Part shown: positions 42,274 to 61,920 of the stretch, one piece after another
Position numbering within the stretch: position 1 is the stretch's first letter
Layout of the letters: each line of letters opens with the position of its first letter
Assembly: GCA_003164715.1 (NCBI GenBank)
Contig: PLTZ01000026.1
Location: 712-64,711, forward strand
Direction: 5' to 3'
Origin: Opitutaceae bacterium
Lineage (GTDB): Bacteria > Verrucomicrobiota > Verrucomicrobiia > Opitutales > Opitutaceae
Length of the DNA stretch: 64,000 nucleotides
Notes under the pieces: model-generated
Databases searched by the model: none
What the model saw: only the letters and a program-made list of their open reading frames with translations
Told to the model about the DNA's origin: nothing
Position numbers and translations under genes: made by a program

Positions 42274-42479
42274 TGCCCCGCGGGGCGCATGAAGGCGTCC
42301 GCACCAGGCTGACGGCCCCGCCGCACACTGAAGCGCGCCCCCTTTAGGCCTGCAAAAAATGCACGATGTTGGTCCAAAAACGCGGAGCCGTGGCGCGCCT
42401 GAGGGCCTACACTTCGCTCGCCCGAACCCGCTGCGCGTGCGCCCGCGCCGGATCCGCGGCCGAACCCCCTTTCGATCCG

Positions 42480-45358: not shown

Positions 45359-46498
45359 TCAAGGCTGCCGTCCGGCAACCGCGGATTCGCCCGGACCCAG
45401 CAGGCGGGAGAACGATCCCATGGCCTCGGCGAATTCGGCGGGAGCAAAATCGGGCTGCGATTGCGCCAGCTCGAACAGGCGGTCGAGCTGACTGGATACG
45501 CCGGCGCCCCGCTCGGCGGGTGGAAGCGCGCCGACCAGCCGGTCCAGTGCCAGGACCAGACGCTCGGCCCGGTAAGCCTGCTGCAGGGCCGGAATCCCTG
45601 CGTCAAGGAAGTCCCCCTGGGTGGCGGATAGGCGGCGCAGCGCGGTCCAGGTGTCCCGCGGTGTCCAAGCGCGCGCCGCGCGCCTGGCGAGCTGGTCGGC
45701 TGTAGCCATCGTTTCAACGAGCTCGTTGCGCGAAGGGGCGGCCGCGTCGTGTGGAGCGCTGGCGCTTGTCAAGCCACTCCGGTTCGCGAGCCAAGCCAAG
45801 CCTTGCCAAGTCAGCACGGCCCGATCCGAGGCGGCCGAGCCATTGAGCAGGGACCAGCTGGCCTCACGCAACGCCACGGATTGCCCGACACACCACGCCT
45901 GTGCGCCCGCGAAGGGGGGAATTTCCCGCCAGTGCCGGGGCTCGTCCTGGGTCTGGCCGTCGAGCTCGAATACCAAGGTCGGGTGGCGGCCCGAGCGGAC
46001 GATCTCGGGATCAATGTTTTGGTGGCATGCCACACAGGTGTTCGCCCGGGTGTAAAGGTCGTTCAGGTCGCGCATCCCAGCCGCAACCCGGTCGGCATGG
46101 GTCCAGTCGGGGCGGGTGTGCCCCCGGAGCCAGCCGTCGGGCAGCGCGTGGCAGCTGACGCACGACACCCCCTCGGCCGGGTCCGCCCCGGTCCCCGGAG
46201 GCGCGCCGGCCAGGGGTGCGTGGCAGACAACGCAACGCGAGCTTTGCTCGGGGTGGGGGATTCCGAGCGCCTCGCCCATTCGCGCGGCGCGGGCGGTGGC
46301 CAGGGTGGCATAGGAGCGGGAGTGCACATCCCGCTGCGACCAGGTGACAAACTGGCTGCTCTTGTCTCCCGCCCCCCCGTGACAGCTGCTCGCTGAACAG
46401 GAATTCGCCCCCAGGGAAACGGCCTCCGCAGCCCGGACCCTCAAAAGGAGGGCAACACCCAAGGCGAAAATCAATCGATTCTTGTTGGCCGATTTCAT
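45359..46498 (-). CDS. Secreted multiheme c-type cytochrome (cytochrome c554-like N-terminal domain)
   Basis: Signal peptide MKSANKNRLIFALGVALLLRVRAAEA. It has three canonical CXXCH motifs (CVVCH, CVSCH, CVACH) plus an N-terminal CSASSCH (CX4CH-type). The C-terminal ~200 aa are heme-free and helical. Confidence 0.8.
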   Translation of the reverse strand: MKSANKNRLIFALGVALLLRVRAAEAVSLGANSCSASSCHGGAGDKSSQFVTWSQRDVHSRSYATLATARAARMGEALGIPHPEQSSRCVVCHAPLAGAPPGTGADPAEGVSCVSCHALPDGWLRGHTRPDWTHADRVAAGMRDLNDLYTRANTCVACHQNIDPEIVRSGRHPTLVFELDGQTQDEPRHWREIPPFAGAQAWCVGQSVALREASWSLLNGSAASDRAVLTWQGLAWLANRSGLTSASAPHDAAAPSRNELVETMATADQLARRAARAWTPRDTWTALRRLSATQGDFLDAGIPALQQAYRAERLVLALDRLVGALPPAERGAGVSSQLDRLFELAQSQPDFAPAEFAEAMGSFSRLLGPGESAVAGRQP

Positions 46499-46537
46499 GA
46501 TTATTCGTTTGGCGCCGGTGATGACGGTCGTCTAGCA

Positions 46538-47902
46538 ATGGTCCGCAAGGTCAGCTCTTCCAGCAGCAAATTGCATGGATTGGGTCCGACCGGGCAACTC
46601 TACAACGAAATGCTAGCGAAAATATTGGATGCGATCGCAGCGCATCCGGCGCTGTACGTCGGGTTGCTGACCGTCTTTTGCTTGGTCCTGCAGGTTTTCC
46701 TCCTGGGCGCGCAGGGCGTCGGCCGGATGCTCGACGATCGCAAGCGGGCCGTACTCGAGCGCCGCCGCCTGGAATTGGAGATCGAGAAGGCCCGCCTGCA
46801 CATCAAGGCGGCGGAGGAGGCCAAGCAGGCGTGGAATGGGGTCCGCAAATTCGCGGTCGCCCGGAAGATGCTGGAGTGCGCGGACACCTTCTCCTACTAC
46901 CTCGAGCCCCACGACCGTCGGCCGCTGCCGGCCTTCAAGCCGGGGCAGTACCTGACCTTCCATCTCAACGTCCCGGGTGCCAGCAAGCCGATCGTGCGGT
47001 GCTACTCGCTCTCCGACATGGCGCGGGCCACGCACTACCGGGTCACGATCAAGCGCTGCGCGGCCCCGGAGGGCTCGCCGCACCCGCCGGGCGTCGGGTC
47101 CTCCTTCTTCACCGACCAGGTCAAGGTGGGCGACATCCTGGATGTGAAGGCCCCCAGCGGCCATTTCTTCCTCGACATCGAGAAGGACCGGCAGGTCGTG
47201 CTCATCTCGGGCGGGGTGGGCGTCACCCCGATGATGGCCATGGCGCAGGCCCTGAAATACGCGGGCTCGACCCGCGAGATCTGGTTTTTCCACGGCGCCC
47301 GCAACACCAAGGACCACATGATGCGGGAGGAGATGGCCGCGCTGGCGGCCGACTACGAGCATCTCCGAATGCACATCTGCTATTCCAAGCCGCTCGAAAC
47401 CGACGTGATGGGACGGGATTACCAGCACGCCGGGCGGGTGACGGTGGAGCTGTTCAAGCAGCTCCTCCCCTCGAACAATTACGATTACTTCCTCTGCGGC
47501 CCCGGACCCTTTATGGAGACGATCACGGAGGACCTGCGCAAATGGGGCGTCCCGGACGCCTGGGTGCATTTCGAGGCCTTTGGCCCCGCCTCGGTCAAGC
47601 GCACGGCCAAGCCCGAGACCAAGGTGGGGGTAACGGTGCCTCCAATGGGCGGGATCGACGTCACCTTTGCGAAATCCGGCCGCACCCTCACGTGGCAGGG
47701 TTCCGGCCTGTCGCTCCTGGACCTGGCCGACGAGAACCAGATCAAGATCGACGCGGGCTGCCGCGCGGGAAACTGCGGCTCCTGCCTCGTGGCCATTAAA
47801 TCGGGCACGGTGGAGTATCTCGGGGCGCACGCCGACGTCGAGGACGGATCCTGCCTGGCCTGCGTCTGCCGACCCGCCTCCGCACTCGTCATTGACGCAT
47901 AA
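46538..47902 (+). CDS. Membrane-anchored FNR-type flavoprotein reductase with C-terminal plant-type 2Fe-2S ferredoxin domain
   Basis: N-terminal TM helix (ALYVGLLTVFCLVLQVFLLGA) followed by a coiled coil. It has the FAD motif RCYSLS, the NAD(P)H motif LISGGVGVTPMM, and CGPGPFM. The 2Fe-2S motif is CRAGNCGSC (CX4CX2C) plus a distal CLAC. An alternative start at 46610 (MLAKIL) is possible. Confidence 0.8.
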   Translation: MVRKVSSSSSKLHGLGPTGQLYNEMLAKILDAIAAHPALYVGLLTVFCLVLQVFLLGAQGVGRMLDDRKRAVLERRRLELEIEKARLHIKAAEEAKQAWNGVRKFAVARKMLECADTFSYYLEPHDRRPLPAFKPGQYLTFHLNVPGASKPIVRCYSLSDMARATHYRVTIKRCAAPEGSPHPPGVGSSFFTDQVKVGDILDVKAPSGHFFLDIEKDRQVVLISGGVGVTPMMAMAQALKYAGSTREIWFFHGARNTKDHMMREEMAALAADYEHLRMHICYSKPLETDVMGRDYQHAGRVTVELFKQLLPSNNYDYFLCGPGPFMETITEDLRKWGVPDAWVHFEAFGPASVKRTAKPETKVGVTVPPMGGIDVTFAKSGRTLTWQGSGLSLLDLADENQIKIDAGCRAGNCGSCLVAIKSGTVEYLGAHADVEDGSCLACVCRPASALVIDA

Positions 47903-49626
47903 TGAGCAAATCGAATGCAGGCCTGAACCGGCCCAAGCGCTGGGATTTCGCGTTCAGCGATGAGATGTCCGACCAATTGGTGGACCGCATCATGCAGATG
48001 GCACCCTTCAGGGACATGGACCCGGAGGGCTTCCCCCGCTCGGCCCAGCTGCCGGACATCCTGAAGAACGATGCGCGCCTGCGGGTCTTCGAGCCCGGCG
48101 AGATTGTCGTCCGGCAGGGGGACTACGGCAACAGCGCCTTCATGGTCTTGACCGGGTCGGCGGAGGTCGTGCTCAGCCCCGGCCTGCCGCCCCGGCTGGA
48201 GGGCCGCAGCGAGCCCAAGCGGAAGCGATGGCTTCACCTGCTGGGCCAGTTTATCGGTAACTCGCGCGAGGACGAGGTGGTCCGGACCTCTTCCGCGCGG
48301 CCGGCCGGCGTGGCGCCGTCGGCCCAGGGGACGGCGCGGGGCGTGATCCTCCAGGACGTTCCGCGGGTCCTGAGCGGGCAGCGCACCGCGACGATCCGGG
48401 AGAGGGATTTTTTCGGGGAGATCGCCGCGCTCTCGCGGCTGCCCCGGACCGCGACCATCTTGGCCGGGGTCCAGGGGGCGGAGATGCTCGAGCTCCGCTG
48501 GCAGGGGCTGCGCGACCTGATGCGAAACGCTCCGCAGCTGCGGCGGTTCATCGACGGGATCTACCGCGAGCGGGCCCTGTCCACGTTCCTGGACGCGTTG
48601 CCCTTCATCAAGTACCTGAGCCCTGAGGCCAAGCAGGAGCTTATGGACGCCACCCAGTTCGAGACCTATGGGGAATACGACTGGTCCGGCGACTACAAGC
48701 AGCTGATCAAGAAGGGTGCCTCCGCAGCCCAGGAACCGACCATCGCGGTCGAGGGCGACTATCCCAACAGCGTCGTCATTGTCCGCGCCGGGTTCGGTCG
48801 CCTGACCCAGCGCTACGGCAACAGCCACCGCACCCTCAACTATCTCGGCTCTGGCAAGATGTACGGCTTCGACGAGATCGCCCACAACTGGCGCGAGCCG
48901 AACCACCACGTGCCGCTGCAGTACACCCTGAGGGTGATCGGCTACACCCACGTCGTAGTGATCCCGGCCGCGGTGGTCGAGCGACTGGTGCTGCCCGTCC
49001 TCCCCAAGTCGTCGCTGCCGCCCCTCATCCCCCAGGACCGGCGGACCCGGCCGCGGTTCGAGCCCGCCGCCGGCGACGCCGCCGGGCCCAGGATCCCGCA
49101 GGACGTGATGGAATTCGTCACCCAGGGCCGGTTCTTCAACGGCACGAAGACGATGGTGATCGACCTGGACCGCTGCACGCGGTGCGACGACTGCGTTCGG
49201 GCCTGCGCCGATACGCACGACAACAACCCTCGCTTCCTCCGGTATGGCCCCATCCATGACAACCTGATGATCGCCGAGGCGTGCATGCACTGCGCCGACC
49301 CGGTGTGCATGATCGGTTGCCCCACGGGCGCGATTCACCGGGATACCTTTGCCGGGAGCGTGGTGGTGAACGCCGACACGTGCATCGGCTGCTCCGCCTG
49401 CGCCAACAACTGCCCCTACAAGGCAATCCGGATGGTGGAGGCCCGCGACGCGGACGGGGAGATCCTCGTGGCCAGCGACTCGAATCCCATCCACAAGGCC
49501 ACCAAGTGCGATCTCTGCGTCGACCAGTTCGGCGGTCCGGCCTGCGAGCGCGCCTGTCCTCACGACGCCCTCACGCGGATCAACCTCAACACCACGCACG
49601 AACTGGCCCGGTGGCTGCAGCGATGA
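47902..49626 (+). CDS. Cyclic-nucleotide-binding-domain protein fused to a DmsB/HybA-like four-cluster 4Fe-4S ferredoxin domain (cytoplasmic)
   Basis: The first cNMP domain is FEPGEIVVRQGDYGNSAFMVLTGSAEV...FFGEIAALSRLPRTATILA. A second degenerate cNMP-like domain follows. Four Cys motifs are present: CTRCDDCVRAC, CMHCADPVCMIGCP, CIGCSACANNCP and CDLCVDQFGGPACERACP. There is no signal or TAT peptide. The start overlaps the upstream stop (TAATG). Confidence 0.8.
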   Translation: MSKSNAGLNRPKRWDFAFSDEMSDQLVDRIMQMAPFRDMDPEGFPRSAQLPDILKNDARLRVFEPGEIVVRQGDYGNSAFMVLTGSAEVVLSPGLPPRLEGRSEPKRKRWLHLLGQFIGNSREDEVVRTSSARPAGVAPSAQGTARGVILQDVPRVLSGQRTATIRERDFFGEIAALSRLPRTATILAGVQGAEMLELRWQGLRDLMRNAPQLRRFIDGIYRERALSTFLDALPFIKYLSPEAKQELMDATQFETYGEYDWSGDYKQLIKKGASAAQEPTIAVEGDYPNSVVIVRAGFGRLTQRYGNSHRTLNYLGSGKMYGFDEIAHNWREPNHHVPLQYTLRVIGYTHVVVIPAAVVERLVLPVLPKSSLPPLIPQDRRTRPRFEPAAGDAAGPRIPQDVMEFVTQGRFFNGTKTMVIDLDRCTRCDDCVRACADTHDNNPRFLRYGPIHDNLMIAEACMHCADPVCMIGCPTGAIHRDTFAGSVVVNADTCIGCSACANNCPYKAIRMVEARDADGEILVASDSNPIHKATKCDLCVDQFGGPACERACPHDALTRINLNTTHELARWLQR

Positions 49627-50450
49627 GGGTGCGCCGGCTCTTGAACCGCCTTTCCTACCCGGTCTGCTTCCTCATGGCCGGCGCCGCGGCGCTTTGGGAG
49701 TTCCCGCGGGCGCGGACGGCCTATCCGCGGCTGGACTACTTGACCGGCTGGTTGCTGATGGCGGCGGTGCTCTTTCTCACCGCCTATAACGGCAGGAAGA
49801 AGATTGCCTTCCTGCCCCTCGCCAGCTCGCGGGCCTGGCTGCGCGTCCATGCGTGGCTCGGCATGCTGACCGGCCTCGTTTTTTTCCTCCACACCCGCTG
49901 GCGGGCGCCCTCCAGCCCCTTCGAGCTCGCCCTGGCCGCCCTATTTGTCGCCGTGACCCTGAGCGGGCTGGTCGGCTGGGGGCTCTCGCGCATCCTGCCG
50001 GGACGCCTCACCACCGCCGGCGGCGAGGTGCCCTACGAGAGGATTCCCGTGATCCGGCGTGCGCTGCGGGAAAGGGCCCAGGAGCTGGTCCTCGAGGTCG
50101 TGCCGACGGCGGGGACCACGACCCTGGCGGATTTCTACGCCGCCCGGCTCAGTCCGTTCTTTTCCGGCCCGAAGGGCTTCGCCTCGCACCTGTTCGGCTC
50201 GGCCCGGACCCTCAAGGGTCTCTTGACCGACATCGACCAGGTGAAGATGCACCTCGGCGACCACGAGAAGTCGGCCGCCATCGAGCTGGCCGCCCTCGTC
50301 CGTGAGAAGGACGCACTCGACCTGCACCGCTCGGTCCAGCTGGTCCTGAAGGGCTGGCTCTTCGTGCACATACCGTTGACCTACGGGTTGCTCGCCTTCG
50401 TTGCAGTCCACGTGGTGCTGGTCTACTCGTTTGCCGGGGGGGCGCGATGA
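49623..50450 (+). CDS. Polytopic membrane protein with conserved-looking His in TM helices (possible b-heme/ferric-reductase-like transmembrane electron carrier)
   Basis: ORF 49281..50450 trimmed to the ATG at 49623, which overlaps the upstream stop (ATGA). It has about 5 TM helices. Histidines lie inside or next to helices: WLRVHAWLGMLTGLVFFLHTRW, WLFVHIPLTYGLLAFVAVHVV. The function is inferred, not recognised. Confidence 0.55.
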   Translation: MRVRRLLNRLSYPVCFLMAGAAALWEFPRARTAYPRLDYLTGWLLMAAVLFLTAYNGRKKIAFLPLASSRAWLRVHAWLGMLTGLVFFLHTRWRAPSSPFELALAALFVAVTLSGLVGWGLSRILPGRLTTAGGEVPYERIPVIRRALRERAQELVLEVVPTAGTTTLADFYAARLSPFFSGPKGFASHLFGSARTLKGLLTDIDQVKMHLGDHEKSAAIELAALVREKDALDLHRSVQLVLKGWLFVHIPLTYGLLAFVAVHVVLVYSFAGGAR

Positions 50451-52156
50451 GCCAGGGCAAGGTTCCGTCCCCCCATTTCGACGATTCGCGCTATGAGCGG
50501 CCGAACAAGGGCTGGCTGTGCGGCCACACCTGCGAAGGCTGCCCCTGCCGGATCGGGCCGAGCCCGAAGGGCCAGTGCCGCGCGACGACCGAGTGCACGC
50601 CGCGGCTCGTCCTCAAGCCCGGGGAAACGAAGGGGACCTGGGCCTGTACCCGGCAGGCGGACTGGGGCGGGCCCTGCGAGCCGGGCCCGTTGCCGGACGG
50701 GCAATGCTGCCGTCAGATTGAGCGGTGCCGGCCCGTGCGCAGCCTGCGCAAGCGCCGGGGCCTCGTGGTCGCGGCGGTCCTGGCCGTCTGCCTGGGCATC
50801 CTCATGATCGGGCTCTCCTGGCCGCTGCGGGCCTCCTTCATCAGCCCCCGCCCGCTGTCCGAGCACCATTCCGGGGCCGCTTTCGCGCGCATAGGCAAAA
50901 ACCCCGCCGACCAGGGCTGCGCGCATTGTCACGGCAACGCCAATGCCAGGTTCGGCGAGCTGGTCTTCGCGGCGGTGGCGGCTTCCCGGACCTCCCTCCG
51001 GTTCTCCGAGCTACCCTCCGGCCATCCCACGGACTTCTCCGCGATGGACCGGTCCTGCCTCGCCTGCCACGCGGCCAAGTCGTTCCACCATGCCAATGTG
51101 GCGGCGAACGACTCCTGTTCAATCTGCCACCGCGAGCACCAGGGCGGCGGCCCGATGGCGGCGGTCACGCCCGCCAACTGCGTCGGGTGCCACGGCGACG
51201 CGGTGCAGATGGCCGCCGCCCGGGAAAAGGGGCGACTCCTGCCCGCGGCGCTCCTGGCGCCGCGGTTGCCGCCCGGGGTGATCGTCCCGCCGGTTCCCCG
51301 GCCATCGACCGGCTACACCGAGGTCATCACCAGTTTCGCCGTCGACCACCCGGAATTCCGGGTGCTCCGCGACCATATTCCGGACCCGAATACCCTGCGG
51401 TTCAACCACCGGCTGCATCTGGGCGGCTCCGACATCCCGCTGGTGAACGGCCGGCCGCTCGACTGCGCCTTCTGCCACGCCCCGGATGCTTCCGGCGCGT
51501 TCAAGAAGCCCGTGCCCTTCGAGACGGCCTGCAGGGTCTGCCATGACCTCAGCTTCGACGAGCACAATCCCGGCCTCGTCCTGCCTCACGGGGACCCGGC
51601 CATCGTGCGCGCCTTCCTGCGGAGCTTGCCCGTGCAGTACGCCGATTACGCGAACCGAAGGCTGGGCCTCGGCGGCAAGGACCAGATCGACGCCTTTGTC
51701 CGGTCCCAGGTGCGGTCCCTGCGGGAGCGGGCGCGCAGCGGTGAGGACCTCGAACAAGTGGTGTTCCTGAGCACGATGGCGAAGGGTCCGGTGCCAGGCA
51801 TCGCCGGTTCCGGAGTGGTCGGGCGGACCCGGTTCTCCGGCTGCGCGCTTTGCCACCAGGTCTCCTGGCGGGGAGGCGCGGCGGTTCCGATCGTGGCGGC
51901 GCCCCGGCCGCCGGACCGGTGGCTACCCGGAGCCCGTTTCAGCCATGCCTTCCATGAATCGGTCGCCTGTGCGGATTGCCACGCCGCGGCGAAGAGCGAG
52001 CGAACCTCCGACGTGCTGATTCCGACGCAGCAGAGCTGCGTCCGCTGCCACAGCCCCAATGGCGGGGTCGCAGATTCCTGCACGACCTGCCATACGTTCC
52101 ATAACCCGCCGCCCGCGTCTCCGGCCGCCAGGACGCTCGCGACCTCGCAGCCTTGA
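50447..52156 (+). CDS. Membrane-anchored decaheme c-type cytochrome with Cys-rich N-terminal (cytoplasmic-side) domain
   Basis: It has ten CXXCH motifs: CAHCH, CLACH, CSICH, CVGCH, CAFCH, CRVCH, CALCH, CADCH, CVRCH, CTTCH. The N-terminal ~100 aa contain 11 Cys (WLCGHTCEGCPC...QCCRQIERC) ahead of RKRRG and one TM helix (LVVAAVLAVCLGILMIGLSW). The start overlaps the upstream stop (ATGA). Confidence 0.85.
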   Translation: MSQGKVPSPHFDDSRYERPNKGWLCGHTCEGCPCRIGPSPKGQCRATTECTPRLVLKPGETKGTWACTRQADWGGPCEPGPLPDGQCCRQIERCRPVRSLRKRRGLVVAAVLAVCLGILMIGLSWPLRASFISPRPLSEHHSGAAFARIGKNPADQGCAHCHGNANARFGELVFAAVAASRTSLRFSELPSGHPTDFSAMDRSCLACHAAKSFHHANVAANDSCSICHREHQGGGPMAAVTPANCVGCHGDAVQMAAAREKGRLLPAALLAPRLPPGVIVPPVPRPSTGYTEVITSFAVDHPEFRVLRDHIPDPNTLRFNHRLHLGGSDIPLVNGRPLDCAFCHAPDASGAFKKPVPFETACRVCHDLSFDEHNPGLVLPHGDPAIVRAFLRSLPVQYADYANRRLGLGGKDQIDAFVRSQVRSLRERARSGEDLEQVVFLSTMAKGPVPGIAGSGVVGRTRFSGCALCHQVSWRGGAAVPIVAAPRPPDRWLPGARFSHAFHESVACADCHAAAKSERTSDVLIPTQQSCVRCHSPNGGVADSCTTCHTFHNPPPASPAARTLATSQP

Positions 52157-52173
52157 AACGGGGCCTTGTCGCA

Positions 52174-54345
52174 ATGTCGGTCGTCCTACTGCTGGTCGCC
52201 TGCGCACACGTGGCGTCAGAGGCCGGCAAGCCGCGGCCAAGGGCCCGCCAGCGGCCGAGCGAGGGCCCTCCCCCGGCGGAGCCCGGGACGGTCCGCCTTG
52301 ATCCCGGGGCGCCATTGCCGCCGTTGCCCCCGGTGTCGGGCCTGCCGCCCCTCCACGTGGTGAGGGTGCCGGAAGGGCGGGCGCAGCCGGGCACCCAGTT
52401 CAACCCTGATCCCGGCGCCTCCGGGCTGGCGACCCCCGCACCGGAACCGCCCCTCTTTACCACTTGGACGGGCGAGGACCTCGTTGCGTCCGCACCGATC
52501 CCGACCGCGCAGGGCGACCTGTACCGCGCCCAGATCGAGCCGGCGCCGGCGGCGACTCCCACGGTTCCCTTTGGGACGGATCCCCTGCCGCCGGCACTGA
52601 AGCTGCCGCGGCCGGGCGTGAAGGCCAACGAGTACATTCCCACGAACTGGCAGGCGCCGGACCACTATTCCCCGGTCGACCCCAGCGCCGAGTACCCCGG
52701 GGCCGAGCTGGTCCGCGACCGATGGTCGGTCGGTTACCAGCCGTGGCGCCGGTACTCCGTCGGCAATCCCGAGGAGATGCCCTATTTCTTCCCGGCCCCA
52801 GCGCTGTGGCACTTTTACCGCCAAAGCCGACTGAAGGGCGATGTGCCGATTCGGGGCCCGGACCTTTTCCTTCGGCTCACCGCCGCCGAGTCGCTGACCG
52901 CGGTGGAAGCCCGGGTGCCCGTTCCGGGCGGCGAGGCGCGGGCGGTCCCGGGCGGCCCCGATTTCTTCGGCGGGAGCACGGAGCGGTTCGTTGAGTCGGA
53001 CTTTGCCTTTGAGGCCGACCTTTTCCGGGGTGACACCGTGTTCCAGCCCTCCGATTGGCTGGTGCACCTGAAGACGGTCATCGACTTTAACCACCTTGAT
53101 TTTCGCGAGACGTGGCGGGAGGACCCTGGGGCGAAGTCCGGCGCCGGCGAGGACACCGTGGTCGCACCCACCACCCGGAATCGAAACTATTTCGCCCTGG
53201 AGGAGGCGTTTGTGGAGAAGCACCTGACGAACCTCTCGCCCAATTTTGATTTTTCCTCGGTTCGCATCGGCAACCAGCACTTCAACAGTGATTTCCGGGG
53301 TTTCGTATTCAACGACACCGACTTCGGCGCCCGGCTGTTTGGCAACTACGACTCCAATCGGTGGCAGTACAACCTGGCGCTCTTTGACCTGCGGGAGAAG
53401 GATGCGGATTCCGGACTCAACACCCTGCGGCGCCGGGGCCAGCTAGTCGCGGTGGCCAATTTATACCACCAGGATTCGTGGCTTCCGGGCTATACCACAG
53501 AGGTCAGCGTGCTCGCCAGCTTTGACCAGGGCGACCCGTACGCCGACGACAATGGCTTGATGGTGCGCCCGGCGCAGCTGGGCGCGGCGCGGCCGCACCG
53601 GGTCGAAAGCTACTACCTCGGTTGGACCGGCGAGGGCCACCTCGGCCGCTGGAACCTCACCGACGCCCTCTACCTGGCCACCGGCCGGGATGATTTCAAC
53701 AGCCTCTCGGGCCAATCCGAGGATATCCTCGCCGGGATGGCGGCGGTGGAGGTCAGCTATGACCGCGACTGGCTCCGGTACAAGGCGGTGGGCTTCTTTG
53801 CCTCCGGCGACCAGCACACCCGCGGCGATCTGGCGACCGGATTTGACTCGATCGACGACGACTCCAATTTGGCCGGCCCGTTCAGCTACTGGCTGCACCA
53901 GAGTTTCAACGCCTCAGGTTCCGGCCTGAGCCTCAAGCAGCCGGCGAGCCTCCTGCCGGACGTGCGCGCTGGCGCCGCGGGGGAGGGCGAGGCCAATTTC
54001 GTCAACCCGGGACTGCTTCTGGCTGGCCTCGGCGCGGAGGCGGACCTGACGCCCAGGCTGCGGGCCTTCGCCAACGCCAATTACCTTTGGTTCGATGCCA
54101 CCGACCCGATCAGGACCCTTTTGCCGGGCAGCGTGGTGTCCCCGAACATCGGCACCGACCTGAGCATGGGATGCCAGTGGCGGCCCTTCCTGATCAGCAA
54201 CGTGGTCCTTTCCGCTGGGTGCGGCTTCCTGCTGCCGCAGGCCGGCTTCAAGGCGATGTACCGGACTCTGCCACCGCCGGAGCGAGGAGTCGGGGTTGAC
54301 GATTTCCTCTACAGCGCGATCCTCGCCGCCACGTTCACCTACTAG
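52174..54345 (+). CDS. Putative outer-membrane beta-barrel protein (porin/alginate-export-like), lipoprotein-type signal
   Basis: MSVVLLLVACAH gives a lipobox (LVAC). A Pro-rich ~150 aa linker is followed by long amphipathic beta-like sequence (SVRIGNQHFNSDFRGFVFND, WQYNLALFDL, YYLGWTGEGHLGRWNLTDALYL, ANANYLWFD). The C-terminus AILAATFTY has the aromatic-terminal OMP signature. An alternative TTG start at 52153 overlaps the upstream TGA. Confidence 0.6.
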   Translation: MSVVLLLVACAHVASEAGKPRPRARQRPSEGPPPAEPGTVRLDPGAPLPPLPPVSGLPPLHVVRVPEGRAQPGTQFNPDPGASGLATPAPEPPLFTTWTGEDLVASAPIPTAQGDLYRAQIEPAPAATPTVPFGTDPLPPALKLPRPGVKANEYIPTNWQAPDHYSPVDPSAEYPGAELVRDRWSVGYQPWRRYSVGNPEEMPYFFPAPALWHFYRQSRLKGDVPIRGPDLFLRLTAAESLTAVEARVPVPGGEARAVPGGPDFFGGSTERFVESDFAFEADLFRGDTVFQPSDWLVHLKTVIDFNHLDFRETWREDPGAKSGAGEDTVVAPTTRNRNYFALEEAFVEKHLTNLSPNFDFSSVRIGNQHFNSDFRGFVFNDTDFGARLFGNYDSNRWQYNLALFDLREKDADSGLNTLRRRGQLVAVANLYHQDSWLPGYTTEVSVLASFDQGDPYADDNGLMVRPAQLGAARPHRVESYYLGWTGEGHLGRWNLTDALYLATGRDDFNSLSGQSEDILAGMAAVEVSYDRDWLRYKAVGFFASGDQHTRGDLATGFDSIDDDSNLAGPFSYWLHQSFNASGSGLSLKQPASLLPDVRAGAAGEGEANFVNPGLLLAGLGAEADLTPRLRAFANANYLWFDATDPIRTLLPGSVVSPNIGTDLSMGCQWRPFLISNVVLSAGCGFLLPQAGFKAMYRTLPPPERGVGVDDFLYSAILAATFTY

Positions 54346-54364
54346 GGCCGAAGCCACCCCCGTG

Positions 54365-57300
54365 ATGCCCCCGTCCCTGATGCCCGCCGGATTCCTCGCC
54401 CGCCTGATTGGAGCGGTGCTTGGCGTGGCCGTGGCCGGGAGCGTCCTTGCATCCAAGACGGCCGGCGCCAGTGACGAACCCGGGGTGTCCATCTTCGGGC
54501 CGCCGGTCTCTGTGCCGCGCGACGCCCGCGCGGACGGGGCCGCGCTCCCGCCGCCGAAGGAGCGCAACTGGATCGACCAGACTCCGGAGGCGGCGCGCCG
54601 GAAGAGCGCAGGCTGCCTGGAATGTCACTCCGGGGTGGAGACCATGCACTCCTCGCCCGACGTGGTGCTGGGCTGCGTCGACTGTCACGGCGGAGACCCG
54701 ACGCCCGGGCTGACCCAGCGCAAGGCCCACGTCAGACCGCTGAACCCGGTATTTTGGGAAAGTTCAGCCAAGCCGGCCGACTCCTCGGTCCTGCTGAACC
54801 ACGAATCTCCCGATTTTATCCGTTTCGTGAACCCGTCCGACCTGCGGGTCGCCGGGCAAGCCTGCGGTCCCTGCCACGGCGAGATCGTGACCCACGTCGG
54901 CTCGAGCATGATGAACCACGGTGCGATGCTCTGGGGGGCCGCCTTGTACAACAACGGCTCAACCCCGTTCAAGAATTACCGGTACGGCCAGGCGTACGCC
55001 GGCAATGGCGAGGCGCTGCGCCTTGAGAGCCCCATCCCCGTGACCCCGGAGATGACCATCCTGCACGGCCTGCTTCCCTTCCTGGAGCCGCTGCCGCGCT
55101 TCGAGGCCAGCCAGCCCTCCAACATCCTCCGCGTCTTCGAGGAGGGCCAGCAGAAGCAGCTGGCCCTCGGCAACCCCGACCCCGAGGATTCCCCGGGACG
55201 CCCGGCCCACCGCCTGTCCGAGCGTGGGCTCGGAACGCTCAACCGGATCGACCCCGTGTTCCTCAACCTCCAGAAGACGCGCCTCAACGATCCGCTGCTG
55301 GGGTTCATGGGGACCAACGACCATCCCGGGGATTATCGCTCGTCGGGCTGCGCCGCCTGCCACGTCATCTACGCCAACGATCGGTCCCCGACCAACTCGG
55401 GCTGGTGGTCAAAGTACGGGAACCAGGGCCTGAGCTTCACCGCCGACACGATGATCTCGAAGACGGAGAAGGCGCACCCGATCCGCCATCAGTTCACCCG
55501 CAGTATCCCTTCCAGCCAGTGCATGTCCTGCCACATGCACCAGGGAAACCTCTTCGTTAACCCGTTCCTAGGCTATATCTGGTGGGACCAGGAGAGCGAC
55601 GGCGAGTTCATGTACCCTTCCAAGCAGAAGAACCCCACTGAGAAGGAGATGGCCGACTCCGTGCTCCACAACCCGGAAGCGGCCGCCGCGCGGGGGCTGT
55701 GGGGCGATCCCGATTTCCTCGAAAAGGTCGCCGAACTGAACCCCAAGCTGAAGCAGACGCAGTTCGCGGACTACCACGGGCACGGGTGGGTCTTCCGCGC
55801 GGTGTTCAAGAAGGACCGGGAGGGCACGCTCCTCACCCTGGATGACAAGCCGATCGACCATAACGACCGGGAGAAATTCTCCAAGGCGGTCCACCTGAAG
55901 GACGTCCACCTCGCCCGGGGAATGCAATGCGTGGACTGCCACTTCCAGACAGACGTCCACGGCAACGGGCTCCTGTACGGCGAGCCGCGGGCGGCTACCG
56001 CGATCGAGTGCATCGACTGCCACGGGACGATCGACCGGCGCCCGACCCTGCGCACGAGCGGGAACTCTGGCACCTTCACCGAGGGCCATGTCGAGCCCAT
56101 TGACCTGGCCAAGGGATCGACCCCGTGGGGGCCCCGTTTCTACTGGCAGGGCCCGCGCCTCTTCCAGCGGTCCATGATGTCGCCGAATGTCGTCTGGGAG
56201 GTCCCGCAGACCCGGGACACGATCGACCCCTCCTCCCCGCGGTACAATGCCAAGTCCGCCTATGCGAAGACCCTGCGCAGGGACGGAAGGAGCTGGGGCG
56301 GCGTTCCCACCAAATCCGTGGGGCTCATCACCCCGGAACTCGCGCATGCGAACTCGAACATTTCCTGCGCCATCTGCCACACCTCGTGGGCGACCAGCTG
56401 CTTCGGCTGCCATTTGCCCATGCGGGCCAACAAGGCGGTCGCGGCCAACAAGTTCGAGGGAATCACGACCCGCAACTACACGACCTACAATCCCCAGGTG
56501 GTGCGCGACGACGTGTTCATGCTGGGCCGCGACGCCACCTACAAGGACCACCGGCTCGCGGTCCTGCGGTCGTCGAGCGCCGTAATCGTGGGCTCCCAGA
56601 ACTCCAACCGGGAATGGATCTATGCGCAGCAGCAGACCATTTCCGCCGAGGGCTATTCCGGGCAGGCCTTCAACCCGCATTTTCCCCACACCACCAGCTC
56701 GGTCGGCACGACCAAGAACTGCACCGATTGTCATCTTTCGGCGGCCAATGACAACAATGCCTGGATGACCCAGCTGCTGGGCTTCGGCACGGGAACGGTC
56801 AATTTCTTTGGCCGCTTTGCCTATGTCGCGTCGGGGCCGGCCGGCTTTGACGCCGTCGCCTGGACGGAGGAAGAGGAGCCCCAGGCGGCGATCGGCAGCC
56901 ACCTCCAGCACCTGGCCTATCCCGACAACTATCGGCGGCACGTGGAAACCAACGGCGGCGTGCTGCAGGAATCGTATCACCACGCGGGCGAGGACATCCG
57001 GGATCTCACCATCCGGGGAGAATACCTCTACACCGCCAACGGGCCCGGGGGCTTCGAGGTCTTCGACGTCGCCAACGTGGCCAACAAGGGATTCTCGCAG
57101 CGGATCGTCTCCGCACCGGTGTCGCCGCTCGGCCAGCGGCTCTGGGTCAAGACCAAGTACGCCACCAGCGTGGTCCTGCCGACCACCTTGGGGGTCGACC
57201 CGCTGCGCTCCCACCGGCCGGAAAACGAGGAACAGCCGATCAGCCCCATCTATGGCTACGTCTACGTGACGGACCGCTACGAGGGCCTGGTCACGGTGAT

Positions 57301-58246
57301 GGTGGGAACCCTCCTGGATGGCGATCCGTCGGATAACTTCCTCAAGGAATCCGACGTGACGCGCTTCAACCCGGGAGGGGCCCTGGACGGCGCCACCCAT
57401 GCGTACATGGCCGGTAGCCGCCTCTACGTTACCTGCGACGCCGGGTTGGTCGTGGTCGACATCTTGGACCCGACCAAGCCTCGGATCGTGGGCCGTTCCC
57501 AGGCGGGCGCCCTGCGCCACCCCCGCCGCCTCGCCGTCCAGTTCATGTACGCCTTTGTTTCCGACGACGACGGCGTGAAGGTGTTTGACCTGAGCACCCC
57601 GGATGCCCCCTGCCTGGTGCCCGCCGCCACGGTGCCCCTCCGCGACGCCCAGGGGCTCTATGCCGCTCGCACCTACCTCTACGTTGCCGATGGCGCCGAG
57701 GGCCTGGCAATCGTGGACATCAAGAACCCCGCCGCCGCCCACCTGAGCGAGATCTTCAGTGCCCACGGCGCCCTCAGCGACACCCGCGCCGTGCAAGTGG
57801 GGGCGGTCAACGCGTCCATGTACGCGCTCGTGGCGGACGGAAAGAACGGCCTGCGGGTGCTCCAAATGGTCTCGCCCGAGAACGTCCCCGGCTACATGGG
57901 GTTCAGCCCCCCGCCCAATCCCAAGCTGATCGCCACCTTCCCAACCCGGGGGGCCGCCGTCGCGGTCGGCCGCGGCCTTGACCGTGATCGCGTTGTCGAT
58001 GAATCCGGCAACCAGACGGTGGTCTTCGGGCGCAGGGGCAGCCGGCCCTTGAACGCCGAGGAGTTTGACACCTTCCTGCGCCGTGCGGGCGAGCTCTACC
58101 GGGTGGATGACGTGAAGGTCGTGGATGGCGCCCTGCGTACGAGCGCCGGCGCGACGCTTACGCCCACCGAGACGTTCACGTCCGACGCGCAGACACCCGA
58201 TGCGCCGGAGGAATCGGGCCGGCTCCGGCGGCGGCCTCCGGATTGA
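54365..58246 (+). CDS. Giant decaheme c-type cytochrome fused to a C-terminal LVIVD-repeat beta-propeller
   Basis: ORF 54296..58246 trimmed to the ATG at 54365 (MPPSLMPAGFLARLIGAVLGVAVAGSVLAS, signal/anchor). It has ten CXXCH motifs: CLECH, CVDCH, CGPCH, CAACH, CMSCH, CVDCH, CIDCH, CAICH, CFGCH, CTDCH. From about 56990 there are six LVIVD-type blades: YLYTANGPGGFEVFDV, YVYVTDRYEGLVTVMV, LYVTCDAGLVVVDI, YAFVSDDDGVKVFDL, YLYVADGAEGLAIVDI, MYALVADGKNGLRVLQM. The 920 aa antisense ORF is spurious. Confidence 0.85.
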   Translation: MPPSLMPAGFLARLIGAVLGVAVAGSVLASKTAGASDEPGVSIFGPPVSVPRDARADGAALPPPKERNWIDQTPEAARRKSAGCLECHSGVETMHSSPDVVLGCVDCHGGDPTPGLTQRKAHVRPLNPVFWESSAKPADSSVLLNHESPDFIRFVNPSDLRVAGQACGPCHGEIVTHVGSSMMNHGAMLWGAALYNNGSTPFKNYRYGQAYAGNGEALRLESPIPVTPEMTILHGLLPFLEPLPRFEASQPSNILRVFEEGQQKQLALGNPDPEDSPGRPAHRLSERGLGTLNRIDPVFLNLQKTRLNDPLLGFMGTNDHPGDYRSSGCAACHVIYANDRSPTNSGWWSKYGNQGLSFTADTMISKTEKAHPIRHQFTRSIPSSQCMSCHMHQGNLFVNPFLGYIWWDQESDGEFMYPSKQKNPTEKEMADSVLHNPEAAAARGLWGDPDFLEKVAELNPKLKQTQFADYHGHGWVFRAVFKKDREGTLLTLDDKPIDHNDREKFSKAVHLKDVHLARGMQCVDCHFQTDVHGNGLLYGEPRAATAIECIDCHGTIDRRPTLRTSGNSGTFTEGHVEPIDLAKGSTPWGPRFYWQGPRLFQRSMMSPNVVWEVPQTRDTIDPSSPRYNAKSAYAKTLRRDGRSWGGVPTKSVGLITPELAHANSNISCAICHTSWATSCFGCHLPMRANKAVAANKFEGITTRNYTTYNPQVVRDDVFMLGRDATYKDHRLAVLRSSSAVIVGSQNSNREWIYAQQQTISAEGYSGQAFNPHFPHTTSSVGTTKNCTDCHLSAANDNNAWMTQLLGFGTGTVNFFGRFAYVASGPAGFDAVAWTEEEEPQAAIGSHLQHLAYPDNYRRHVETNGGVLQESYHHAGEDIRDLTIRGEYLYTANGPGGFEVFDVANVANKGFSQRIVSAPVSPLGQRLWVKTKYATSVVLPTTLGVDPLRSHRPENEEQPISPIYGYVYVTDRYEGLVTVMVGTLLDGDPSDNFLKESDVTRFNPGGALDGATHAYMAGSRLYVTCDAGLVVVDILDPTKPRIVGRSQAGALRHPRRLAVQFMYAFVSDDDGVKVFDLSTPDAPCLVPAATVPLRDAQGLYAARTYLYVADGAEGLAIVDIKNPAAAHLSEIFSAHGALSDTRAVQVGAVNASMYALVADGKNGLRVLQMVSPENVPGYMGFSPPPNPKLIATFPTRGAAVAVGRGLDRDRVVDESGNQTVVFGRRGSRPLNAEEFDTFLRRAGELYRVDDVKVVDGALRTSAGATLTPTETFTSDAQTPDAPEESGRLRRRPPD

Positions 58247-58281: not shown

Positions 58282-58358
58282 TGGTGGACGCTACAGGATT
58301 CGAACCTGTGACCCCGTGCGTGTGATGCACGTGCTCTAACCAGCTGAGCTAAGCGTCC
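58282..58358 (-). tRNA. tRNA-Val (anticodon CAC)
   Basis: The minus-strand read is GGACGCUUAGCUCAGCUGGUUAGAGCACGUGCAUCACACGCACGGGGUCACAGGUUCGAAUCCUGUAGCGUCCACCA. It folds as a cloverleaf with a 7 bp acceptor stem and D arm GCUC/GAGC. The anticodon stem is CGUGC/GCACG with loop AUCACAC (anticodon CAC). The T arm is ACAGG-UUCGAAU-CCUGU, and the CCA end is encoded. Confidence 0.95.
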
Positions 58359-58445: not shown

Positions 58446-61400
58446 TCAGGCCCGCAGCGGACGGCGGCGGAGTCCAAGCAGCGCGACCGCGAGGAGGCCC
58501 GATCCAAGCAGCGCCCACGTGGACGGCTCGGGCACCGGGGTGAAGTTGAGGAACAGGTCGTTCCCGCTCTCGGTGAAGCTGAAGCTGCCCCCGGCGGTGC
58601 TGTTGGAAAATCCGGTCGTGATCAGGTTGAACTCGTTGGCGTTGAACCCGGTGATTGCGCTGGAGGACGCGGCGAACATCCAGGAATACGGGTTCGCCGG
58701 GTTGAAATTGAGCGCCGCCGCAGAGTTTCCGCTCGCGTCAACCGAGACCAGGTTGAACGTGAACGTGTTTGCGCCCGCGGTCAGCGACAGCCCGCCGTTC
58801 GCCGATATCTCGCTGTAGCCGGTGCCCGCGGCCCCGTTCGCATCGTAGAGCTCGAAGCGCATCGCGCCTCCGGACGCGAGCGTGAGCGCGTTGGTGAAGG
58901 CGAGGTTGCCGGGGCCGCCTCCGGGCGACGCGCTCGGCGACAGGACGACCGAGCCGTTCACGGTGACCGGAGCGGACGCGAGGGTGCCGTTGCCCGAGAG
59001 GACGTTGGCGGCATTTGAAAACATCAGCGGGTTGCTGATCGTGACCCCGTTCATCACGTTGAGGTCGGCGCCCCCGGTCAGGCTCACGGTGTCGGCGCTG
59101 GCACCGAGCGCGTTGTTGTTGCCGGCGATCACCGTGCCGCTCGAGATCGTGAAGGGGCCGGTGAGCCCGCTGTTGTTGGCGGTCAGGGTCAGCGTTCCCC
59201 CGCTGCCGCCGGAGTACGTGGTGGCGGCCGTGCCCGTTGAGGCAACGACGCCCGAGATCGTGATGTTGTCATCGTCGGTGTTCCCAAGCTGGGCTGAGGT
59301 GCCGACCATGGTGATGGCGTTCGGGATCGCGCGCGTGATTCCTGTGCCGAGCGCCGAAAGGGTCGTGCCGGTGTCGAGGAGGATGGTTCCCGTGCCGGCG
59401 GCCGTGTCGCTTCCGAGGAGCAGCACCCCGTCGCGCATGTCGATCCCGTACTGGAACGTGTTGTTGCCGGTGAGGGTGAGCGTGCTCCAGGTGCACCAGG
59501 CGATGCCGTTGGTGCCGGAGATCTGGCCGTTAAGCGTCAGGTTGTTGGAGCCGCCGTCGTCGTTGTCGATGTAGCCGGTGCCGTTGAGGACGATCGGGTT
59601 GGCCAGCGTGACATTTGCCGACGGCGAAAGCTCAGTGTCCTGGTCAAACGTCAGGGTCCCGGTGCCGACCGCCGTGTTGCTGCCGACAAAGAGCTCCCCG
59701 GTCGTCACGGCAGTCCCGCCTGCGTAGGTGTTGTTGCCGGAGAGCGTGATGGCGCCAAGGTTGCTCCCGTAGAGCGTGCCCAGGATGTTGACCATGCCCG
59801 AGCCCGAGATGACGCCCGCGAAGACCGAGCTGTCCGTGCTCGACGGAGCGAACTGGAGGGTCCCGTTGTTCACGACGTTGCCGGCGAGCGAGGCCCCGGT
59901 GGCTGCGCCGTCGCCGATGGACAGCATCGCGCCCGAGCCGATCGTCGTCCCCCCGGTGTAGGTGTTGACGCCGTCGAGAACGGTCGTCCCGCCCGATCCC
60001 GTGACCGCGAGGCTGCCGCCGGCGCCGGAAATATTGCCCGCGAAGGTCTGCGAGCCGCTCGTGCCCGCGATCGTCAGGGTCTGGTTTCCAAGGAGGATCG
60101 AGTTGCCGGCGCCCCCGGAGACCGAGCCGACCGTGTTGCTGAACCCGTTCAGGTCGAGCGTGGCCAGGTACGGGAAGTCCAGCTCGCTAAGGCCCGTCGC
60201 CCCTCCGAAGGCGCTCGCCGAGCCCGCCTTCATCGTGCCCCTGAATATCGTCGTCACGCCCGAGTACGTGTTGGTGCCCGACAGGATGACCGTTCCGCTG
60301 CCGTACTGGCCGACGCCCCCGGAACCGGCGACGTTGTTCGCGAAGGTGAAGCTGTCGCCCCGGGAGAAGCTCACGGAACCCGTCCCGATGACGTTGATGT
60401 TCGAGGCGGGGTCGATGTACCCGTTCGAATCGCTGGAATTGCCGATCTGGAGGGCGCCGGAGGTGATGACGATGGCCCCGGTCCCCGTGGCGTAGCCGCC
60501 TGCGTTGTCCGCGAGGAGCGTGCCGTTACTTATCGCCGTCCCTCCGGAATAGGTGTTGCTGCCGGTCAGATCCAAGACGTAGCCGACCGAGTTGAGCGCG
60601 CCGGTGCCGGAGATGGCGCCCGAGAAGAGCGTGTTGCTTGAGCCGGTGCCGACGGTGAGGGCGCCGGCCCCGAGGGTCACCGCGCCGCTGCCGGCCAGCG
60701 ACCCGATCGTGTTGCTGAACCCGTTCAGGTCGAGGGTGGCGCCGCCGCCCACGCTCACCGCGCTCAGGCCCGTTGCCCCGCCGAAGGCGCTCACCGATCC
60801 CGCCTGCAATGTGCCGTGAATGATAGTGATCGCGCCGGAATTGGTGTTGGTCCCGGAGAGCGTGGTAATGCCCGTTCCGGTCTGCACGACCTGGAGGGCC
60901 CCGGAAAGGTTTCCCGCGTAGGTGTAGGCGTTGGAGCGATCGAAGCCCAGCGTGCCCGTGCCCGACACGCCGCTGCTTGCGATGCTGCCGGTCGTCCCCC
61001 CGTTACCAATCTCGATGGCTGTGCCTCCTACGCCATTGATCACGGTCGGGCCGGTGTAGGTGTTGGCGCCTGTCAGGGTTAGCGTGCCCGTCGTGTCCTT
61101 CTCGATCCCGCCGACGCCGGAGATGACCCCAGAAAAGGTCGTGCTGAAGCCGCCGTTCATGAGCAACGAGGCCCCGCTCGCGATGAGGACGGAGCCGCCG
61201 CTGCTTAGGTAGTCCTGGAGATAAGAGACGGTCTCGTTGAAATTGACGTCCACGGCAGCGCCTGAGGTCACGCTCAGCCCGCTGCCGGGCGCAAACGCGC
61301 CTGCGTTCGCGTCCGCGAGCGTTCCGGAGCTCAACAGGGTGTTGCCGGTGTAGGCGTTCGCAGTTCCTCCGAGCGTCAGGATACCGGTTCCGTTGAGGAC

Positions 61401-61757: not shown

Positions 61758-61920
61758 GGGCGCGAAGGCTTCTGCAAATGGATGGCGTTCACAAGCCCAT
61801 TTTGCAGAAAACTTATTAACTAAATTCAACAATCTAATGACATTGCGCTCACAAACCGTGAGCATTCATTAGTTGTTCCCATGTAATAACCTAACACACT
61901 TACATCCCGCTCGGTGAAAC

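Follow-up and report, generated by a model that had tools for sequence, protein, structure and literature searches.

A candidate NAD(P)H-fed, two-module electron-export system with multihaem cytochromes and an AlgE-like barrel in Opitutaceae and relatives

By what route might electrons leave the cytoplasm of a soil bacterium that carries, within 13 kb, a flavoprotein, an iron-sulfur protein, three multihaem cytochromes and an outer-membrane barrel, and where would they go? The question is raised by seven genes, here called a to g, at positions 45359-58246 of a 64,000-nucleotide stretch of an Opitutaceae genome (assembly GCA_003164715.1, contig PLTZ01000026.1, positions 712 to 64,711, forward strand), which we call the window. 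The genome closest to it is a palsa Opitutaceae metagenome-assembled genome, and one ENA metagenome contig (L081) is identical to it. An earlier note on this DNA had reported seven open reading frames forming an electron path from cytoplasm to cell surface. A list of open reading frames and domain searches located all seven, with their domains, as follows:

g, 45359-46498 (-): exported tetrahaem cytochrome c; Pfam Cytochrome_C554
a, 46538-47902 (+): membrane-tethered FNR-type NAD(P)H flavoprotein with a C-terminal plant-type 2Fe-2S domain
b, 47902-49626 (+): cytoplasmic hub protein with two cyclic nucleotide (cNMP)-binding domains and a four-cluster [4Fe-4S] ferredoxin domain
c, 49623-50450 (+): polytopic inner-membrane protein; candidate di-haem b transmembrane electron carrier
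d, 50447-52156 (+): inner-membrane-anchored decahaem cytochrome c
e, 52153 (TTG) or 52174 (ATG)-54345 (+): outer-membrane lipoprotein, modelled as an AlgE-like beta-barrel
f, 54365-58246 (+): exported decahaem cytochrome c with a C-terminal LVIVD beta-propeller, 1293 aa

We read the cluster as a two-module electron-export system, in which a-d together with g form the input and e-f the output, and we give this reading slightly better than an even chance.

A coupled gene set with a conserved core

The seven reading frames are real and form a co-transcribed set, with g on the opposite strand. A six-frame search of the window found 24 CXXCH motifs, 23 of them in frame within g, d and f against a background expectation of 0.02, so the haem motifs are not due to chance; in alignments, every haem motif of the window's cytochromes is conserved among homologues. 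The junctions read from the sequence are TAATG between a and b, and ATGA both between b and c and between c and d. Between d and e the reading depends on the start of e: with the TTG the two genes share a TTGA overlap, and with ATG 52174, the start of the identical database protein P0001, they are 18 nt apart; the start of e is thus ambiguous. A further 19 nt separate e from f. These overlapping stop and start codons, from a to d and possibly on to e, indicate one transcription unit. The earlier note had them running from a to e, which holds for the first three junctions and, at d/e, only with the TTG start.

In order to see whether the genes travel together, as the earlier note had proposed to check, we scanned one genome per species for relatives of e, which gave at least 596 stretches, and kept the best 80 as loci; these fall in Verrucomicrobiota, Acidobacteriota and Planctomycetota. 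Gene f follows e in 74 of the 80, and most of the other six end at a contig edge. Neighbours were counted in 43 well-flanked loci, whose upstream flank measures at least 8 kb and whose downstream flank at least 5 kb. In these, b was found in 28, c in 27, g in 27, d in 19 and a in 9; a fused NuoE-NuoF protein occurred in 16, a Pyr_redox_2 protein in 12 and a CHASE2-domain adenylate/guanylate cyclase in 8. A secreted tandem HbpS-like protein of the haem-binding family was present in 40 of the 43, usually divergent just upstream of e. Judged by gene order, e-f is an obligate pair and the invariant core, a point that the earlier note had missed, as it had the interchangeable input described below. 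The earlier claim of one functional gene set is supported, and so is the co-occurrence of its genes in relatives, where the conserved set exceeds seven genes by the HbpS-like partner.

The system extends beyond these phyla. A tblastn search against plasmids located it in 12 Sphingobium strains and in Sphingopyxis indica, in each case on a megaplasmid. On pMSHV of Sphingobium herbicidovorans MH (802868-828040, B6S01_RS18415-18455; L085), an HbpS-like gene (“heme-binding protein”), e and f follow one another in that order, with 37% identity to the window for e and 45% over 1287 residues for f, and a Pyr_redox-b fusion, c and d lie on the opposite strand. The sphingomonads are obligate aerobes, which argues against a role restricted to anaerobic respiration. 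A CcmH/CycH-type TPR gene adjoins b on the same plasmid.

The input module and its interchangeable NAD(P)H entry

Protein a carries Pfam FAD_binding_6, NAD_binding_1 and Fer2 domains, with RCYS at residue 154, GGVGVTP at 225 and CX4CX2C at 408, behind an N-terminal hydrophobic anchor (residues ~29-60). Among NCBIfam models, it is most like the reductase half of flavohaemoprotein (2.7e-79, under the cut-off). Protein b, in which sequence prediction found no signal peptide, matches Pfam cNMP_binding (3e-18) and Fer4 families. Its four Cys motifs, at residues 425, 461, 494 and 536, are of the 4-cluster ferredoxin type, the FGE...RTA phosphate-binding cassette of its first cNMP domain is intact, and its similarity to DmsB/HydN/NrfC-type NCBIfam models stays under their cut-offs. 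We propose that NAD(P)H would be oxidised in the cytoplasm by a and that electrons would pass on to the four [4Fe-4S] clusters of b, where the two cyclic nucleotide domains would probably gate or tune their flow.

Acidobacteriota, Chthoniobacterales and Sphingobium all keep the architecture of b, with its pair of cNMP domains and its 4Fe-4S clusters, and it is what precedes the relay that changes. Protein a is the entry module in Opitutia, Limisphaerales and Akkermansiaceae; elsewhere NuoEF/NuoG-like or Pyr_redox modules take its place. In Acidobacteriota and Chthoniobacterales, b gains a NuoG-like N-terminus beside the fused NuoE-NuoF protein, so that a complete NADH-dehydrogenase head is grafted on the relay, and in Sphingobium b is fused to a Pyr_redox flavoprotein domain. 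The b-c-d relay, which accompanies e-f in four phyla, is thus preceded by an interchangeable flavoprotein entry of FNR, NuoEFG or Pyr_redox type. That several non-homologous NAD(P)H dehydrogenase modules stand before the same relay is strong comparative evidence for feeding by NAD(P)H. That flavin and Fe-S proteins, and not a quinol dehydrogenase, bring in the electrons, with cytoplasmic NAD(P)H as their source, is therefore well supported by sequence comparison, as the earlier note had supposed.

Examples of b with the N-terminal Fer2_4/NADH-G_4Fe-4S_3 module and a NuoE-NuoF neighbour are L058:439-2814 (-), L058:2607-4337 (-) and L041:17303-19948 (-). At L082, a ferredoxin and two CysJ-like reductases come directly after f, and no b-c-d relay was called there. 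CHASE2-domain cyclases are encoded no more than 10 kb from e-f in 11 loci (L011:15642-17771, L013, L019, L030, L045, L054, L060, L065, L070, L072 and L073), which fits regulation of b by a locally made cyclic nucleotide. Cyclase, NuoEF-like and Pyr_redox partners were sought in the 64-kb window, and none was found.

How electrons might cross the inner membrane is suggested by c. It has about five transmembrane (TM) helices, with H76 and H90 in TM3 and H249 and H263 in TM5, each pair spaced Hx13H, and a cytoplasmic insert of ~120 residues between TM4 and TM5. An alignment of 25 homologues from two phyla shows H76 and H90 without exception and H249 and H263 in at least 90% of the sequences, and these four are the only conserved polar residues inside the membrane. 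Cytochrome b and NOX/ferric-reductase domains have the same ligand pattern of four histidines in TM3/TM5-type pairs. Sub-threshold family matches recur among the 25 (DUF4405 in 10, Ni_hydr_CYTB in 6, Ferric_reduct in 3), the best scores lying under the curated thresholds (DUF4405 E = 0.001; Ni_hydr_CYTB 22 bits vs 30; Ferric_reduct 10 vs 28), and the Sphingobium homologue matches Ni_hydr_CYTB (prokaryotic cytochrome b561) at 1.4e-4. A PDB sequence search with the c-family profile gave no significant match. Because of the invariant or nearly invariant histidines, their Hx13H spacing on parallel helices and the recurrent weak matches to membrane b-haem families, we infer that c is a di-haem b protein, in which two stacked, bis-His-ligated haems would pass electrons from b to the first c-haem of d.

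Protein d has one TM helix (residues 105-123) and a periplasmic 10-haem domain whose ten CXXCH motifs are invariant among 22 sequences. Its cytoplasmic head is Cys-rich, with 8 conserved Cys in residues ~20-95. The head was seen in the 14 lineages with a in range, one edge-cut locus excepted, and is absent from 7 lineages without a; the Sphingobium protein has a cytoplasmic FHA/YscD-like domain instead. This confinement to lineages with a, together with the swap in Sphingobium, suggests a docking or regulatory role. The similarities of d to known families are weak (DmsE/MtrA-family, NrfH and c7; 23.4 bits on TIGR03508 vs a cut-off of 192.2), and a PDB sequence search with d returned nothing significant.

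The ten haems of d would receive the electrons from c, and g would carry them across the periplasm. The description of g as a c554-like cytochrome with 3-4 haems was borne out: it matches Cytochrome_C554 (E = 5e-9), and its four haem motifs, 3 CXXCH and 1 CX4CH, are invariant among 23 homologues. With a cleavable-looking signal peptide, a c554-like N-terminal half and a helical C-terminal half of ~180 aa, g is a candidate soluble periplasmic shuttle. A chain from NAD(P)H to periplasmic haems is, on these comparisons, well supported. No quinone-site or proton-pumping element is recognisable in the cluster; a route that bypasses quinones and pumps no protons would be a reductant supply or an NAD(P)H sink rather than an energy-conserving chain.

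A near-identical parts list, missed by the earlier note, has already been named ptdABCDEFG. The operon was described bioinformatically, its function being “completely unknown” to its authors, in marine oxygen-deficient-zone Alphaproteobacteria UBA11136, Gammaproteobacteria, Nitrospirales and Planctomycetes (bioRxiv 10.1101/2023.11.21.568154, 2024 preprint). It comprises an FAD/NAD(P) oxidoreductase that resembles flavohaemoprotein, a periplasmic tetrahaem protein, a cNMP-binding 4Fe-4S protein, a ferric-reductase-like membrane protein, a decahaem protein, a porin and a pentahaem protein of the NrfA COG with a beta-sandwich (bioRxiv 10.1101/2023.11.21.568154). Likened by architecture, from the description only, a corresponds to PtdC, g to PtdD, b to PtdE, c to PtdF and d to PtdG, and the porin e occupies the place of PtdB, so that six of the seven parts are shared by role. 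The terminal component is different, the pentahaem PtdA standing against the 1293-aa decahaem-LVIVD protein f; in addition, the window barrel is modelled as AlgE-like, relatives of the window carry the HbpS-like partner, and the ptd operon is marine whereas the present system is found in soil and freshwater. We read the window system as a probable ptd-type variant with another output module.

The outer-membrane pair and the fate of the electrons

Protein e has a signal peptide with the lipobox LVAC, conserved within Opitutaceae, and ends in ...TFTY. An AlphaFold2 model of e alone gives a confident barrel, in line with the earlier note: 18 long antiparallel strands at high model confidence (pLDDT) over residues ~238-730, preceded by a Pro-rich N-terminal region of low confidence. 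Foldseek searches with the model placed AlgE first (E = 4e-12, TM-score 0.61-0.69); the top 16 matches were AlgE, general porins came next, and MtrB was not found among the top 50. In the e family, Pfam Alginate_exp (PF13372) was the only recurrent match (11 of 44 members, best E = 1.3e-5), window e itself being below detection for it, and MtrB_PioB (PF11854) matched neither window e nor any of the 44 homologues. As modelled, lumen-facing residues are more conserved than lipid-facing ones (0.66 vs 0.48) and net acidic (24 Asp/Glu vs 15 Arg/Lys).

The Pro-rich N-terminal third of e (residues 1-235; 52153-52860) is specific to Verrucomicrobiota, Acidobacteriota matches beginning near residue 189, and keeps the invariant short motifs FNPDPG, LPR and RW...W.R.Y. 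This region might tether the protein across the periplasm or offer a docking site.

Protein f has a Sec signal, a haem part of ~800 aa with ten CXXCH motifs, and LVIVD repeats (Pfam E = 1e-19). All ten motifs are conserved, one of them turning into CX4CH in Acidobacteriota, as are at least 14 further histidines. It is the best-conserved protein of the set, with 80% identity to its nearest relative, 61-70% across Verrucomicrobiota and 52-55% to Acidobacteriota; the values for e, d, c and g are far below these. The model of the propeller is a confident one, similar to YncE/AztD/BtuG-type, generic 7/8-blade propellers. Each of two protein searches with f gave at least 8000 matches, and members of the family are seen in Acidobacteriota, Verrucomicrobiota, Planctomycetota and Sphingomonadaceae. 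Among the best 150 matches of a representative search with the haem domain, full-length relatives (~1090-1700 aa) always had the propeller. The family is without functional annotation, and a literature search for a link between LVIVD and haem found nothing relevant.

Does this pair lead electrons through the outer membrane as MtrA-MtrB-MtrC and the Geobacter Pcc systems do, as the earlier note had suggested? In such a conduit, d would insert in the barrel e, and f at the cell surface would reduce insoluble Fe(III)/Mn(IV), humics or electrodes. The window's order of decahaem, barrel and decahaem, with genes coupled or nearly so, is what one would expect of it, as are an outer-membrane barrel lipoprotein obligately paired with f, LVIVD repeats, typical of cell-surface proteins according to their Pfam description, the weak resemblance of d to the DmsE/MtrA family, and hosts that are soil, peat and lake bacteria, a group proposed to pass electrons to humics by extracellular electron transfer (EET). 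However, the modelled barrel is 18-stranded and AlgE-like, and an 18-strand barrel is too narrow to sheath a decahaem wire; the published EET porins of Verrucomicrobiota and Acidobacteriota do match MtrB, unlike e. Protein d is fixed in the inner membrane by its TM helix, and in most lineages its gene does not adjoin e; in lineages other than the window's it lies on the opposite strand or kilobases away. The lipobox is not conserved in f (a loose pattern in 16 of 223 sequences, none in window f), and its identity of 52-80% is enzyme-like and far above that of the usual outer-surface cytochromes. TIGR03507 (MtrC/OmcA) does not match f and matches only g, at 18.6 bits vs 209; Geobacter ExtM, a 12-haem cytochrome (NF040943), matches f at 65.7 bits vs 800 with a best stretch of 52 residues, and the GSU2203 model gave 13.8 bits vs a cut-off of 325. 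The presence of the system in aerobic sphingomonads is a further point against such a conduit, which we regard as unlikely. The models thus indicate that e is an 18-strand AlgE-like barrel lipoprotein of the outer membrane and not a 26-strand MtrB-like sheath, and of the path once drawn from cytoplasm to surface, the stretch from NAD(P)H to periplasmic haems is well supported while the Mtr-like outer-membrane step is not.

The enzyme-like conservation of f raises a second alternative, in which f is a periplasmic relative of NrfA, octahaem nitrite reductase or HAO, with e as its substrate channel; NAD(P)H would be the donor and a small soluble N- or S-oxyanion, NO, hydroxylamine or peroxide the acceptor. 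The only PDB family found with the f profile is octahaem nitrite reductase, PtdA was assigned to the NrfA COG, and a resembles the reductase of the NO-detoxifying flavohaemoprotein. Strong homology of the haem proteins to a characterised enzyme, which the earlier note had named as the finding that would count against its proposal, was not what emerged: the PDB match is borderline (E = 0.0025, two short collinear stretches), the hhalign comparison with E. coli NrfA gives 78.5% probability over 44 columns around the haem-4/5 motif, and the similarity remains local throughout (44-50 residues). CXXCK, CX15CH and other atypical catalytic haem motifs were sought in f and none was found; its ten ordinary CXXCH motifs and the additional conserved histidines suffice for all-bis-His ligation. 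The net acidic lumen modelled for e would disfavour anions, and small anions require no dedicated porin. We think this alternative improbable, somewhat more so than the Mtr-type conduit.

Under the two-module reading, f is presumed to be the terminal oxidoreductase and would work with the barrel at the outer membrane, most likely at its periplasmic mouth, the oxidant entering or the product leaving through e. We picture e as a specific, probably cation-selective channel rather than a sheath for a haem wire, and our favoured guess for the acceptor is a metal, for example Fe(III), or a small redox-active organic. The HbpS-like protein may be a third core component of this output module. It is a protein of ~540 aa with tandem domains of the haem-binding/degrading family PF03928, found in loci from L006 to L080 and in Sphingobium and Sphingopyxis; examples are L013:8317-9918 (-), L058:7548-9185 (-), L085:23669-25173 and L086:6859-8967.

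In the window, the slot of the HbpS-like gene is taken by another:

DUF362-Ig protein, 42366-45296 (+): exported, upstream of the cluster; membership in the system uncertain; Pfam DUF362, Ig_3

It ends in two ~130-aa repeats, the only part that matches the HbpS-like proteins of Chthoniobacterales, and the repeats recur in another window gene near 34089-34589; the arrangement is the same in L081. We considered the DUF362 gene as a conserved third partner and rejected it, since single-linkage clustering had joined it to the HbpS-like family via the shared C-terminal repeat only.

Could the cluster instead join two unrelated neighbours, an NAD(P)H-linked inner-membrane cytochrome complex (g, a-d) and the e-f pair? 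About one third of the well-flanked loci have e-f without b-c-d within 10 kb, the Sphingopyxis plasmid has a multihaem cytochrome, the HbpS-like gene, e and f with no b-c-d nearby, and the relative orientation of the modules varies. These observations make the two modules separable and so weigh against our reading too. Against a chance neighbourhood, b-c-d and e-f co-localise in Verrucomicrobiota, Acidobacteriota and Sphingobium despite rearrangements and differing NAD(P)H modules, d and e overlap or are 18 nt apart in the window, and the ptd operon again pairs the same input set with a porin and a haem protein; we attach very little weight to this alternative. Equally hard to credit is reverse flow, in which e-f would take electrons from a donor outside the cell or in the periplasm, for example Fe(II), and the chain would reduce NAD(P)+ or ferredoxin: an acidic-lumen barrel beside haems recalls the Cyc2 logic of Fe(II) oxidisers, and NuoEF-type and FNR-type modules are reversible in principle, but there is no recognisable energy-coupling device to push electrons uphill to -320 mV, the membrane potential opposes inward movement through c, and the hosts are heterotrophs, judged by neighbouring sugar transporter and GH53 genes.

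Further points also tell against the two-module reading. The argument for haem b in c consists of conserved histidines and sub-threshold matches. The 18 strands and acidic lumen of e are readings of a model, and the haem domain of f is modelled at a pLDDT below 50, so that neither a catalytic site nor a wire geometry is established. A search of the 64-kb window found no homologue of the HbpS-like protein that 40 of 43 loci possess. The outward direction of flow is assumed from redox potentials. We advance the fullest version of the reading tentatively, thinking it more probably wrong than right in at least one part: a cNMP-gated, quinone-independent NAD(P)H exporter with di-haem b and 24 c-haems, ending in a new outer-membrane module of AlgE-like barrel, decahaem-propeller protein and usually HbpS-like haem protein, which would be a major overlooked route of extracytoplasmic reduction in soil. 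Its substrate could be iron, humics or another oxidant.

Relation to known systems, hosts and flanks

The earlier note recognised no characterised respiratory module here, and we agree: the cluster could not be assigned to MtrCAB, Pcc/Ext, Tmc/Hmc or NrfA/HAO. MtrCAB, Pcc (OmaB-OmbB-OmcB) and Ext resemble it in setting multihaem c-type cytochromes beside a dedicated outer-membrane barrel, with adjacent genes and a presumed purpose of moving electrons toward the cell exterior. They differ from it in nearly every part. MtrB has 26 strands and e is modelled with 18 in an AlgE-like fold; d is anchored and has a cytoplasmic head, whereas the MtrA/DmsE-family decahaem is soluble and periplasmic; f is no lipoprotein, whereas the MtrC/OmcA-family decahaem is an outer-surface lipoprotein; and input here would be NAD(P)H through Fe-S and haem b, in place of a quinol dehydrogenase (CymA, ImcH, CbcL). 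There is no family-level similarity to OmaB/OmbB/OmcB or Ext proteins.

Proposals of electron export have been made from genomes of the same phyla and habitats (He et al. 2017, PMC5615132; EET1-EET4, Fiorito et al. 2026, bioRxiv 10.64898/2026.05.27.727921), and these two surveys of Verrucomicrobiota and Acidobacteriota missed the present cluster. The clusters they describe have octahaem MtrA/DmsE-like cytochromes, MtrB-like porins, and OcwA-like, UshA-like or NHL proteins (PMC5615132; bioRxiv 10.64898/2026.05.27.727921), and a decahaem-LVIVD protein, an AlgE-like barrel and a cNMP/Fe-S input are each absent from all of them. Identity of the window cluster with the published Verrucomicrobia porin-cytochrome clusters was ruled out, those being composed of an octahaem MtrA-like cytochrome and an MtrB-like porin (PMC5615132).

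The Tmc and Hmc complexes share with the input module a periplasmic multihaem c, a membrane cytochrome b and a cytoplasmic Fe-S protein on a quinone-independent path, and b and d have weak matches to HmcB, DsrO and TmcA (TmcA 20.6 bits vs 114; HmcB 33.7 vs 420). In those complexes, by contrast, the electrons that H2 oxidation releases in the periplasm travel inward to sulfate reduction in the cytoplasm, and the complexes are without an NAD(P)H flavoprotein, cNMP domains or an outer-membrane partner. A CCG-domain protein was sought within the cluster and none was found; the one at 61921-63243 belongs to a glycolate-oxidase-like set. A closer parallel in principle is offered by NOX, FRE and MsrQ, where NAD(P)H, flavin and two stacked b haems (His pairs in TM3/TM5) serve an extracytoplasmic acceptor as an electrogenic, non-conserving supply of reductant; here these functions would be split over several polypeptides with an Fe-S protein between, and the acceptor would be 24 c-type haems. 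As for AlgE itself, the 18-strand fold and the Pfam matches in the e family are shared. Unlike AlgE, e has no alginate genes near it, a long, Pro-rich, lipidated N-terminus and a cytochrome as its obligate partner, and its modelled lumen is net acidic whereas the AlgE pore is electropositive.

Bacteria that are among the most abundant in soil, peat and lakes are found in the host groups. If the two-module reading is true, many heterotrophs with aerobic or fermentative lifestyles could have a quinone-free way to discard NAD(P)H electrons, or to supply them, beyond the cytoplasm, with a bearing on iron and humic redox cycling and on carbon turnover. As a multi-subunit counterpart of the NOX/ferric-reductase principle that is coupled to multihaem wires, the system would have no bacterial precedent; it would also be a rare redox chain with cyclic nucleotide sensor domains. 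Because cultured Sphingobium and Sphingopyxis carry it on megaplasmids, the system is open to direct test, the S. herbicidovorans MH plasmid locus being a ready experimental model.

Some loci depart from the usual spacing of e and f. In L082, a 163-aa 23S_rRNA_IVP four-helix-bundle gene (12409-12900) lies between them, and in L057 and L064 several kb do. The f-like reading frame of L064 has 927 aa and five CXXCH motifs, and could be a frameshift or a genuinely shorter variant.

The flanks of the window cluster are unrelated to it. Upstream lie an MFS sugar transporter and a GH53 glycosidase. Downstream, 36 nt beyond the f stop codon, the cluster is closed off by a tRNA-Val gene (anticodon CAC, 58282-58358, -). 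It is followed by a large PEP-CTERM-anchored protein with passenger-associated-transport repeats (PATR; 58446-61865, -), a surface protein typical of Verrucomicrobiota that is not kept beside the cluster in relatives, and by the glycolate-oxidase-like set (61921-63998, -), which consists of a GlcF-like CCG/4Fe-4S protein and a protein with an FAD-oxidase C-terminal domain and contains the only CXXCH of the window outside the cytochrome genes.

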